This document shows, piece by piece, positions 1 to 13,066 of a stretch of 64,000 nt of DNA. The position numbers and the translations under genes were made by a program. This DNA comes from Patescibacteria group bacterium. GTDB lineage: Bacteria > Patescibacteriota > Minisyncoccia > 2-02-FULL-40-12 > IGHO2-01-FULL-4-A. The DNA is taken from contig JBBTSB010000009.1 in assembly GCA_038064915.1 (NCBI GenBank), forward strand, positions 20,773 to 84,772, given 5' to 3'. Under the pieces are notes generated by a model that searched no databases, was not told the DNA's origin, and saw nothing but the letters and a program-made list of their open reading frames with translations. Each line of letters begins with the position of its first letter. The stretch's first letter is position 1.

Positions 1-238
1 ACCTGGAACCATCTCCTTACACATAATCCATCGCTTTCGCGTGGGGTGGACTATCTCATGTCCCTTTTGGGGACTCGGGTATATAGTCTCTACACATTTA
101 CCCCGGCATCAGCCGGAGATTTAGCTCGGGATTGCCCCGAAGGGTTTCCCCGAATTAGCCCGATTTTTCAATCCGCATTACTGCGAAAAGCTGCCTTATA
201 CTCGACAGGGAGCCGCTCTACCATTGAGCTACCGCGGA
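1..238 (-). ncRNA. Putative intron-containing tRNA (5' exon plus partial group I intron), truncated by the window edge
   Basis: Minus strand reads as tRNA acceptor/D-arm (TCCGCGG-TA-GCTC-AATGGTA-GAGC) then GCTCC-CTGT, but no 3' half of the anticodon stem follows. Downstream is a highly structured segment containing GGGGAAACC and GGGCAATCCCGAGCTAAATC, which resembles the conserved AAUCCUGAGCCAA core of tRNA-resident group I introns. Candidate P1 is exon CUGU paired with intron GGCAG. The 3' exon would lie beyond position 1. Confidence 0.45.
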
Positions 239-262
239 ATATTTAGTTGTACGATCATTCTA

Positions 263-1453
263 TCAGTACCCCTTGAGTTTTTCAATCTTGTGATGCTGGC
301 GGATTTTTTCGAGAGCTTTGGCTTCGATCTGACGGATGCGTTCGCGCGTGACGCCAAAGACTTTGCCTACTTCTTCGAGGGTGTGGGTTACGCCATCGGC
401 GAGGCCGAAGCGCATTTCGAGAATTTTCTGTTCTCGTCCCGCAAGATCACCGATGATTTCGTTGAGATGGTCCCGAAGGATGCGGCGACCGGCGATTGTC
501 TCGGGAGAGACCGTATCTTCGTCGGCTACAAAATCTGCAAGTACGGAATCACCATCTTCATCCCCCACTGGTGCTTCCAGCGGAACCGTGTCTTGAGAAA
601 TTTTGATGATGTGACGGATCTTGTCCACTTCCACGTTCATTTCCGCCGCGACTTCTTCCGGCAAGGGTTCCCGTCCAAGATCCTGCACCAAACGACGTAC
701 GACTTGCTGGTACTTGTTGATCGTCTCGATCATGTGCACCGGAATGCGGATGGTGCGTGCTTGATCAGCAAGTGCACGCGTAATACCCTGGCGGATCCAC
801 CAGGTTGCGTAGGTGGAAAACTTGAATCCCTTCCGGTAGTCAAATTTGTCTACGGCACGGGACAGTCCAATATTTCCCTCTTGTATCAAATCGAGTAGCG
901 TGAGGTTGGCAGAGCGTCCGACATATTTCTTGGCGATAGAGACAACCAGACGCAGATTTGAAAGCATGAGCCGTTGACGCGCCGTTTCCTCGCCGCGTTC
1001 AATCTTTTTCGCAAGATCAATTTCCTCTTCGCTGGAAAGCAACGGGTACTTGCCGATTTCACGCAGATACATCTGCACGGAATCGGAGCCCGCTTCGATT
1101 TGTTCCAGTTCGAGTTTTTTCTTTTCCTCAAATTCCGTATTCTCGCGCTCTTCGGCAAACACCCGTCCGGTGTCGACAACATTGATATTTGCGGCTTCCA
1201 AACGCTCATAGAGTTTTTCCAAGCCCTCCACGTCTTTTTCCACATGGGGAAATGCATGGAGAATTTCTGACTCTGTAATAAAGCCGCGATGTCGGCCTTT
1301 TTCGATCAAACGCAAAATCGCATCCTCTCCGAGGGCAGATGAACGTTTCTTTTTTACCTGTTTTTTAGAGCTGCCCCGACGTTTTGGTGAATGTCGCGAC
1401 GAGCTGTGCGAGGCGCGTTTTGTCGCCTTGCCTTTCCGCTTCTTTGATTTCAT
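263..1453 (-). CDS. rpoD: RNA polymerase sigma-70 factor RpoD
   Basis: Regions 1.2 to 4 are conserved ([57 protein letters not shown]). The N-terminal start is uncertain and overlaps the dnaG 3' end by about 88 nt. Confidence 0.9.
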
Positions 1454-12754: not shown

Positions 12755-13066
12755 TTAAACTTTCTTAAATACCTCCTTTACCTTCACAAACCTTCCCTCA
12801 TGTTCCGGTGCGGCTTCGACAAGATCCATCGGATTCCCATCCCACCACGGCACGGCTTCGTCTTTCCGAAAAACATCTTCAAGTCCCGTGACCTGCGCCG
12901 TCGGCTCCACGCCTTCGGTGTTCACCTCTTTGAGTTTTTCCACGTACGTCAAAATCTGCCCAAGCTCCTTGGTCATTTTTTCTTTTTGTGCATCATCAAA
13001 CTCCAACCTCGCCAATTTGGCAATGTGTTCAACTTGTTCTTTGGTGATAGTAGACATTAAGTCCAA
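12755..13066 (-). CDS. gatC: Glutamyl-tRNA(Gln) amidotransferase subunit C
   Basis: GatC-like sequence (ITKEQVEHIAKLARLEFDDAQ); located upstream of gatA. Confidence 0.85.
   Translation of the reverse strand: MDLMSTITKEQVEHIAKLARLEFDDAQKEKMTKELGQILTYVEKLKEVNTEGVEPTAQVTGLEDVFRKDEAVPWWDGNPMDLVEAAPEHEGRFVKVKEVFKKV

Follow-up and report, generated by a model that had tools for sequence, protein, structure and literature searches.

The window, a 64,000-nt stretch of bacterial DNA, carries at its left edge, on the minus strand, a tRNA-Asn(GUU) gene that lies downstream of rpoD, with 24 nt between the two. The initial annotation had proposed a tRNA downstream of rpoD, and the upstream gene indeed encodes a sigma factor with Sigma70 r1-r4 domains. 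By exact-protein look-up, an exact copy of the window's DnaG protein is encoded on two ENA contigs, L001 (75.7 kb) and L002, both from Hainich aquifer groundwater (0.1-um filter fraction). The two contigs are identical to the window across the intron locus, and coordinates convert as window position = 13021 - L001 position. The same look-up with the 396-aa rpoD open reading frame gave no match; the called rpoD begins later, since the gene caller places its start on the identical contig L001 at window 1315, giving a protein of 350 aa (L001 gene 11706-12758, with Pfam Sigma70_r1_1/r1_2/r2/r3/r4 domains). The main elements of the locus are as follows.

263..1453, minus strand: rpoD (sigma-70) open reading frame from the ORF list, ending at window 263; context only
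257..285, minus strand: promoter-like site TTGAAA-17-(TGa)TAGAAT, overlapping the rpoD stop codon (consensus scan; L001 12736-12764)
205..238, minus strand: tRNA-Asn 5' exon, 34 nt (sequence; ARAGORN on the joined exons gives tRNA-Asn(gtt))
20..204, minus strand: the whole 185-nt group I intron, free of ORFs, C+1 through omega-G (RF00028, family HMM, exon mapping)
1..19, minus strand: first 19 of the 38 nt of the 3' exon (window sequence)

The gene order dnaG-rpoD-tRNA-Asn recurs at no fewer than 36 genome loci and at least 34 metagenome loci. Among the matches listed, the closest rpoD relatives are L132 (83% identity), which has a 508-nt HNH intron at the corresponding site, and L176 (82%), which is intronless there. 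As judged from its relatives, rpoD identity included, the host is a Patescibacteria (CPR, Parcubacteria-like) groundwater bacterium. The -10 element of the promoter-like site ends 18 nt before tRNA position 1, and the split tRNA gene possibly has its own promoter at this promoter-like sequence; the consensus scan found 3 sites against 1.9 expected in shuffles.

The two exons can be read directly in the sequence, as listed here in 5' to 3' order of the gene.

238..232, minus strand: acceptor strand UCCGCGG, followed by U8 and A9
229..215, minus strand: D-arm GCUC-AAUGGUA-GAGC, followed by G26
213..209, minus strand: anticodon-stem 5' strand GCUCC
208..205, minus strand: 5' exon loop nucleotides C32 U33 G34 U35 (CUGU)
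19..17, minus strand: 3' exon loop nucleotides U36 A37 A38 (UAA)
16..12, minus strand: anticodon-stem 3' strand GGAGA
11..7, minus strand: variable loop UGGUU
6..2, minus strand: T-stem 5' strand CCAGG, followed by U54

The elements named for the 5' exon in the initial annotation, namely the acceptor strand, the D-arm GCTC-AATGGTA-GAGC and GCTCC followed by CTGT, are all present. Its claim that the anticodon stem lacks a 3' half is incorrect, since GGAGA is found at 16..12, directly after the UAA at 19..17. The 3' exon had been placed beyond the window edge, which holds for its last 19 nt (UCGAGUCCUGGCCGCGGAG, supplied by L001 and L002); the first 19 nt lie inside the window, from position 19. 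Near the edge, the 3' splice region reads AUUAUGUG, then the splice site, then UAAGGAGAUGGUUCCAGGU. Extension upstream of position 1, proposed at the time as a check, reveals the rest: on L001 the whole 3' exon spans 13002-13039 (38 nt), with a T-arm CCAGG-UUCGAGU-CCUGG followed by a perfect acceptor complement, CCGCGGA, and the discriminator G73.

Joining the exons at the predicted junction, GGCUCCCUGU to UAAGGAGAUGG, gives a 72-nt RNA that ARAGORN calls as tRNA-Asn(gtt); all 7 bp of its acceptor stem are paired, its T-stem has 5 bp and the discriminator is G73. This predicted product is matched over 72 of 72 nt by an uninterrupted gene on 8 metagenome contigs. A scan of the 64-kb window and of L001 found no second, intact tRNA-Asn gene. 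Intronless alleles with the same exon junction occur in other organisms.

The intervening sequence was recognised as a group I intron by two models. The Rfam Intron_gpI model (RF00028), suggested for this purpose in the initial annotation, matches window 218..28 over its full length (model positions 1-253) with 49.2 bits (E 1.1e-11 in a 400-nt search). On the whole window it is the sole such match (E 1.8e-9), and the extended contig gives the same match. Neither of the outcomes that the initial annotation had named as refuting, a lacking 3' exon or a failed Infernal match, was therefore observed. A family profile HMM built from 54 homologues, with the window left out, matches 209..26 with 148 bits (E 8e-45) and nothing else in the 64 kb. 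The match to a group I intron is far beyond chance, and, with the joined exons forming tRNA-Asn, the tRNA is interrupted by a group I intron as first suspected; the motifs GGGGAAACC and GGGCAATCCCGAGCTAAATC that had drawn attention lie inside the structured stretch 3' of CTGT. The RF00028 score falls 0.8 bit under the Rfam gathering score of 50, so default Rfam annotation misses the intron. Fifteen of 18 sampled relatives pass that score (56-83 bits), and all 15 score above the window intron.

Helices were placed by homology, using the seed alignment that has been published for bacterial tRNA introns. Homologue boundaries came from our own exon mapper, anchored on the acceptor, the T-arm and anticodon-stem pairing; ARAGORN's intron mode places introns arbitrarily and misnamed many homologues (Thr, Ala, Gln, Ser, 'Stop'). 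The resulting model, again in 5' to 3' order, is listed below.

204..208, minus strand: P1 5' strand, exon C32 U33 G34 U35 plus intron C+1, pairing with 195..191
191..195, minus strand: internal guide sequence GGCAG (P1 3' strand)
172..187, minus strand: P2, a 6-bp hairpin capped by the GNRA tetraloop GUAA
159..163, minus strand: P3 5' strand UCGGG, pairing with 79..75
126..153, minus strand: P4 (UCGGGG/UCCCGA), J4/5 AAA, P5 (CCC-UUCG-GGG) and J5/4 CAA, from the alignment
94..125, minus strand: P6 (GC/GU), conserved internal loop UAAAU/UAAAU and 7-bp hairpin P6a, from covariation
84..90, minus strand: P7 5' strand G-A(bulge)-GACUA, predicted guanosine-binding helix, pairing with 53..48
75..79, minus strand: P3 3' strand CCCGA, closing the P3/P7 pseudoknot, from the covariation alignment
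60..74, minus strand: P8 hairpin GUCCC-CAAAA-GGGAC
48..53, minus strand: P7 3' strand UAGUCC, from sequence and alignment
28..44, minus strand: P9, a hairpin CCACGC-GAAA-GCG(A)UGG capped by a GAAA tetraloop, from sequence
20..27, minus strand: 3' tail AUUAUGUG, in which G22 and U21 pair with A47 and C46 (P9.0, AC/GU) and G20 is omega-G

The 5' splice site thus lies between window 205 and 204, and the 3' splice site between 20 and 19. The intron comprises helices P1-P9 plus P6a only, without large peripheral domains. In a MAFFT alignment of 55 homologues (<85% pairwise identity), standard pairs occupy 91.1% of the pair cells, compared with 32-46% after the partners are shifted by 1-3 columns, and two-sided changes occur in 461 cells, against 149 +/- 15 in shuffles. 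Thirty of the 53 pairs covary, distributed over the P1 C+1:G pair, P2, P3, P5, P6a, P8 and P9.0. Single-sequence MFE folding recovers P1, P2, P3, P6a and P8 (z = -3.5).

P1 had been drawn beforehand as exon CUGU paired to GGCAG with a U.G pair at the splice site, and this helix proved invariant: all 55 homologues retain the four exon pairs, the GCAG of the guide sequence and the U35.G wobble. The C+1:G extension pair covaries (CG 29, UG 4, AU 3, GC 3), and the P1 loop is 8 nt. In P2, two-sided changes occur at 6 of 6 pairs. Three of the five P3 pairs covary (UA/CG, CG/UA, GC/AU), with 99.3% of cells paired. P4 is invariant or nearly so and two of the three P5 pairs covary; in the seed alignment of bacterial tRNA introns, the P4/P5 segment lines up colinearly with the blocks AAUUCGGGGAAACC...AAUCCCGA. 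P6 is likewise invariant, and all seven pairs of P6a and all five of P8 covary. The bulged nucleotide beside a G-C pair in P7 agrees with how P7 is annotated in the Williams seed alignment; the invariance of P7 among homologues arises because the search pattern fixes it.

At the 3' end, the P9 form of the window intron is shared by L010 and L070, its closest homologues over that segment. Most family members differ, so that the MAFFT columns (61.5% paired) test this P9 poorly. The inner pair of P9.0 covaries (AU 21, GC 17, CG 4, UA 2). A G stands directly before TAAGGAG in all 43 interrupted metagenome alleles among the matches listed. A P10 between the guide sequence and the 3' exon would have 2 bp at best.

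Taken together, the exon/intron boundaries, the family membership, the covarying fold and a ligated product that equals real uninterrupted genes are established, and very probably a compact, ORF-less, Azoarcus-like (IC3-type) intron of 185 nt splits tRNA-Asn(GUU) between U35 and U36 and is removed by the standard group I pathway. In such a pathway, the pre-tRNA would arise either from the promoter-like site at the end of rpoD or as a read-through transcript of dnaG-rpoD. The intron would fold into P1-P9 with the P3/P7 pseudoknot, and the guide GGCAG would pair with exon CUGU(c), so that the U35.G wobble would mark the 5' splice site. P7 is expected to bind exogenous guanosine, which would attack after U35. 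The omega-G (window 20), positioned by P9.0, would then take over the guanosine's site in P7, and the freed 3'-OH of U35 would attack after omega-G, ligating the 72-nt tRNA-Asn and releasing the intron. From its conservation, we infer that the intron is catalytically active and self-splices, probably autonomously of proteins.

Three alternatives to this scheme were weighed. With UGUG at its end, the intron can be read in two registers that each put a U ahead of the 5' site and a G ahead of the 3' site: one places CUGU before the intron and UAA after its final G, giving tRNA-Asn (4Ug), and the other splices 2 nt earlier, with CU before the intron and UGUAA after ...AUG, giving a tRNA-Thr with anticodon UGU (2Ug). 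The latter is the call that ARAGORN returns with -i, tRNA-Thr(tgt) i(33,185). In that register, though, U33 would form a Watson-Crick pair with an A of the guide, whereas U35.G is a wobble in every homologue aligned, and 96 of 109 homologues among the matches listed offer no such option, ending in UUG, CUG or similar. The tRNA body is moreover Asn-like, with U1-A72, G73 and the UCC...GGAG ends of E. coli tRNA-Asn, and it is the Asn junction that the 8 uninterrupted genes equal exactly. The tRNA-Thr(UGU) reading, lacking the U.G wobble at its 5' site and having a body that equals tRNA-Asn genes, was rejected as having next to no chance of being correct. The Asn register is thus retained, and the initial annotation, which had put the splice after U35 of G34-U35-N36, was correct, with N36 being U.

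Given the Asn register, the locus might be a tRNA pseudogene holding a splicing-dead relic, with an intact tRNA-Asn elsewhere doing the work. The window intron has the lowest RF00028 score but three among the 19 scored and relatives commonly carry intronless alleles, as such a history would allow; yet all core elements agree with the family consensus and all pairs of P1-P8 are intact, the exons are intact and identical to functional-looking genes, the position is a conserved syntenic one for tRNA-Asn, and tRNAs are usually single copy in CPR genomes. We regard a relic as very unlikely. A need for a host protein, such as a chaperone or maturase-like factor, for splicing of a genuine group I intron in vivo is somewhat less improbable, though still unlikely. 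P5 (3 bp) and P8 (5 bp) are very short and bring little peripheral stabilisation, the Azoarcus intron, at 205 nt, exceeds it in length by 20 nt, and many group I introns need protein cofactors. Against this, the intron keeps GNRA tetraloops on L2 (GUAA) and L9 (GAAA), as in Azoarcus, it has no ORF, and self-splicing in vitro is a property of the classical small bacterial tRNA introns that are built in this way. The Azoarcus pre-tRNA-Ile intron in particular has been characterised experimentally and self-splices in vitro (PMC13168695). Self-splicing of the window intron by the standard pathway thus remains our preferred reading.

We then surveyed the distribution of this intron subtype, using one genome per GTDB species and the core pattern GTAGAGACTATATAC-N(15-45)-GATAGTCC. 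It was found in at least 119 species-representative contigs, nearly all of them Patescibacteria MAGs, with hosts among Gottesman-, Woese-, Davies-, Roizman-, Ames-, Levy-, Yanofsky- and Jorgensenbacteria, Paceibacteria and Saccharimonadales; some TPA MAGs among the matches are labelled 'uncultured Gammaproteobacteria'. The initial annotation had considered bacterial tRNA introns rare, and one in a CPR-like genome notable for that reason. This premise does not stand, given these contigs and a preprint that mapped 5292 group I introns of tRNA genes, distributed over 21 tRNA/site classes (Williams 2020, bioRxiv 10.1101/2020.01.27.920355). Among the matches listed, 109 of 115 mapped homologues are inserted at loop position 4 with U-1 and omega-G (91 in tRNA-Asn, 18 in tRNA-Asp), the introns measure 174-289 nt (median about 195), and the nearest intron is that of L070, a Yanofskybacteria MAG, at 83% identity. 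A rough, unsupported NJ tree groups the window intron with introns of Paceibacteria, Jorgensenbacteria and Yanofskybacteria. A scan of 2.9 million viral contigs gave 4 matches. The ORF list contains no intron-encoded endonuclease ORF within the 185-nt window intron.

The site itself was surveyed in at least 120 metagenome contigs that share the same 22-nt 5' exon end. Among the matches listed, 52 alleles are intronless, 27 carry a small intron of 179-259 nt and 16 carry a long intron of 463-557 nt. The long introns sampled (L131, L132, L145, L156, L188, L193, L197) match RF00028 with E 1e-7 or better; 11 of the 16 long introns listed have an ORF of 104-109 aa in the P1 loop, and both long-intron ORFs tested matched Pfam HNH (PF01844). 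The syntenic rpoD-tRNA-Asn site is therefore evolutionarily dynamic, being empty or occupied by a mini-intron or an HNH intron, and the window intron is one among several alternatives found at this conserved position. Its P9 and 3' tail resemble those of the HNH-type introns, not its own core family, which would imply modular recombination between intron types. We tentatively propose, as a possibility that we ourselves consider doubtful, that the intron belongs to a Patescibacteria-wide ORF-less lineage including the smallest natural group I introns noted (174-185 nt versus 205 nt in Azoarcus), residing at a tRNA-Asn hot spot between U35 and U36 at which close relatives exchange empty sites, mini-introns and HNH introns, and that its P9 and 3' tail were swapped in by recombination during homing. 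If mini-introns self-splice without protein, they would offer new minimal ribozyme scaffolds, and their very small size may interest ribozyme structural biologists.

The main value of the finding lies in annotation. In the window, default ARAGORN and Rfam at gathering scores report four ordinary tRNAs and neither the split tRNA nor the intron; the split gene escapes default ARAGORN as well as the Rfam tRNA model run at its gathering score, which makes the genome seem to be without this tRNA-Asn. Such an apparent loss can mislead completeness checks and claims of a reduced translation machinery in CPR bacteria. Group I introns have been noted to make tRNAs hard to detect in circularized metagenome-derived genomes (Lui et al. 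2021, PMC8172020), and the authors of tRNAscan-SE 2.0 state that the tool is not designed for such introns (PMC8450103).

A literature search combining 'group I intron' with 'tRNA-Asn' returned mitochondrial co-mentions only, and a broader search led to the Williams preprint. In that preprint, the classes include Asn.4Ug and Asp.4Ug, a frequency of 0.49 introns per genome is given for unnamed metagenomic phyla, the seed alignment holds Pam37.Asn.4Ug and Wba81.Asp.4Ug, and four classical bacterial tRNA introns are labelled IC3 in a database that it cites (Williams 2020, 10.1101/2020.01.27.920355). The window intron belongs to Asn.4Ug: its exons form tRNA-Asn(GUU), and splicing falls after the fourth loop nucleotide, with U-1 and G-omega. 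It likewise has the features of an IC3-type intron, lying in a bacterial tRNA anticodon loop (nucleotides 4/5) and being compact without large peripheral domains; the IC3-type label is a predicted one, based on colinearity, by inspection, with Azoarcus and other Williams seeds.

Within the preprint's seed alignment, Pam37, the Asn.4Ug seed, shares with the window intron the tRNA-Asn host, the insertion between U35 and U36 (after the fourth loop nucleotide), U-1 and G-omega. It is larger, with additional helices separating P2 from P3 and a post-P7 insertion, both missing in the window intron, whose core is of the Asp.4Ug seed type rather than the Pam37 type. The Asp.4Ug seed in the same alignment, Wba81, is our locus L029, the tRNA-Asp intron of Candidatus Woesebacteria GW2011_GWF1_31_35 (CP011214.1). 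It is colinear with the window intron helix for helix and shares the guide sequence and splice position as well as the blocks GGCAGCUU, GUAA L2, UUGAAAAA, CUAAUUCGGGGAAACC, AAUCCCGAGCUAAAUC, GUAAAUGUGUAGAGACUAUAUACC, GAUAGUCC and GAAA L9. It differs in its host (tRNA-Asp, 3' exon CAC..., versus tRNA-Asn, UAA...) and its length (196 versus 185 nt). Nine of 10 Asp introns also cluster in a separate clade of the rough NJ tree, outside the group that contains the window intron.

The Azoarcus Ile intron similarly interrupts an anticodon loop, has a compact P1-P9 architecture without P2.1, P5abc or P9.1-type domains, and bears GNRA loops on P2 and P9. Shared blocks are found in J3/4-P4 (AAUUCGG.GAAACC), P4'-P6 (CAA..CCGAGC) and J6/7-P7 (GUGUAGAGACUA). 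Unlike the window intron, it is inserted after loop position 5 (Ile2.5Ug) rather than 4; its P6 is GCC/GGU with AAG/GAA, versus GC/GU with UAAAU/UAAAU; J7/3 is GA, versus UAUA; and P2, P5 and P8 are longer. Splicing is known experimentally for Azoarcus and predicted for the window intron. The cyanobacterial and plastid tRNA-Leu(UAA) intron (Leu.3Ug), assigned to the IC3 class in the intron database cited by Williams, also lies within the anticodon with a U.G at the 5' splice site, but it occupies another tRNA, after U34, is about 250 nt long and occurs in other taxa.

The HNH introns (e.g. L132, L156, L190) occupy the identical position in tRNA-Asn genes that are nearly the same and likewise follow rpoD, and they have a P9 and 3' tail similar to those of the window intron (CCACCCCA..GAAAG..AUGGAUUAUGUG). 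They differ in length (507-557 nt), in a P1 loop holding a 104-109-aa HNH ORF where the window intron has its short, ORF-less loop, and in core subtype (GGGAUAACGGUGAA...GUAAUACCGUGGGAAC). As its kind, class and phylogenetic setting are all in the earlier literature (Williams 2020), the window intron is a new sequence member: it adds one sequence to a documented class, at no more than 83% identity to the nearest species-representative intron listed.

The intron subtype of the window was found to split a second tRNA gene, tRNA-Asp(GUC), at the equivalent position, between CUGU and CAC. Carriers among the matches listed are the contigs L007, L009, L018, L024, L028-L030, L036, L052, L059, L074, L077, L078, L084, L087, L088, L108 and L121. 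In a rough neighbor-joining tree, nine of ten tRNA-Asp introns form a single clade, with the intron of L030 nested among tRNA-Asn introns, a topology pointing to a single switch, or two, between host tRNA genes having the common CUGU target.

The uppermost anticodon-stem pair in the tRNA-Asn of the window (window positions 213 and 12) is mismatched, G27-A43. This mismatch also occurs in intron-containing tRNA-Asn homologues (66 of 91 among the matches listed) and in intronless alleles (GGCUCC...GGAGA); it is, by sequence comparison, a feature of the lineage and not damage caused by the intron.

At precisely the tRNA-Asn site that the window's intron occupies, between U35 and U36, related metagenome contigs carry group I introns of 507-557 nt, with a core subtype unlike that of the window (among the matches listed, L132, L145, L156, L190, L193, L197, L210, L211, L223, L235 and L238). 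The P1 loop of these introns contains an ORF of 104-109 aa with the motif CxxC...HH...CxxC..H; both of the two ORFs tested matched Pfam HNH, and the product is presumably a homing endonuclease. The coordinates on one of these contigs are:

L132, 5445-5952: HNH-type intron in tRNA-Asn, between U35 and U36

A third kind of occupant between U35 and U36, a 463-nt group I intron, is found on metagenome contigs L131, L155 and L198, scoring 66.6 bits against RF00028 on L131. These 463-nt introns lack an HNH ORF, their longest ORF being 46 aa.

The P9 and 3' tail of the window intron (window 20-47) read CCACCCCACGCGAAAGCGAUGGAUUAUGUG, and resemble those of the HNH-type introns of TCCGCGG-type tRNA-Asn genes, as judged against the intron 3' ends of L156, L211, L150 and L132. 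This form is shared by contigs L010 and L070, while the majority of the intron's own core family has CCUUUUGGUAACAGAAGGGUUCUUG instead. Either an exchange of modules among types of intron or a constraint specific to the host could account for this distribution.

The CPR-type intron of the window is also present on many TPA MAG contigs that bear the title 'uncultured Gammaproteobacteria/Pseudomonadales bacterium' (L004, L007-L009, L011, L023, L026-L028, L031, L034, L036, L046, L047, L053, L079, the last a 615-kb 'chromosome 1', and others). Two of them, L034 and L053, show dnaG-rpoD-tRNA-Asn synteny, with an rpoD 55-57% identical to that of the window, the same range as in Patescibacteria-labelled MAGs. 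The taxonomic labels of these intron-bearing contigs look wrong.

Within the window, the rpoD ORF read from its first ATG encodes 396 aa and shares 89 nt with the 3' end of dnaG. The 396-aa form has no exact protein match because the gene caller picks a later start on the identical groundwater contig, giving 350 aa; window 1315-1453 is the stretch between the two starts. Mechanically called plus-strand ORFs at 46-246 (66 aa) and 224-898 (224 aa) run antisense to the intron/tRNA and to rpoD and are not genes. Separately, LOOT RNA (RF03000) was detected well above the gathering score on L070 (7681-7801, 77 bits) and L157 (612-735, 88 bits), in both cases within a few kilobases or less of the split tRNA-Asn gene.

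In the alignment of 55 homologous introns, the P6a hairpin (columns about 115-140) is wholly absent from L056, L057 and L075. The smallest introns mapped among the matches listed, those of L058 and L075, measure 174 nt, well below the 205 nt of the Azoarcus intron.
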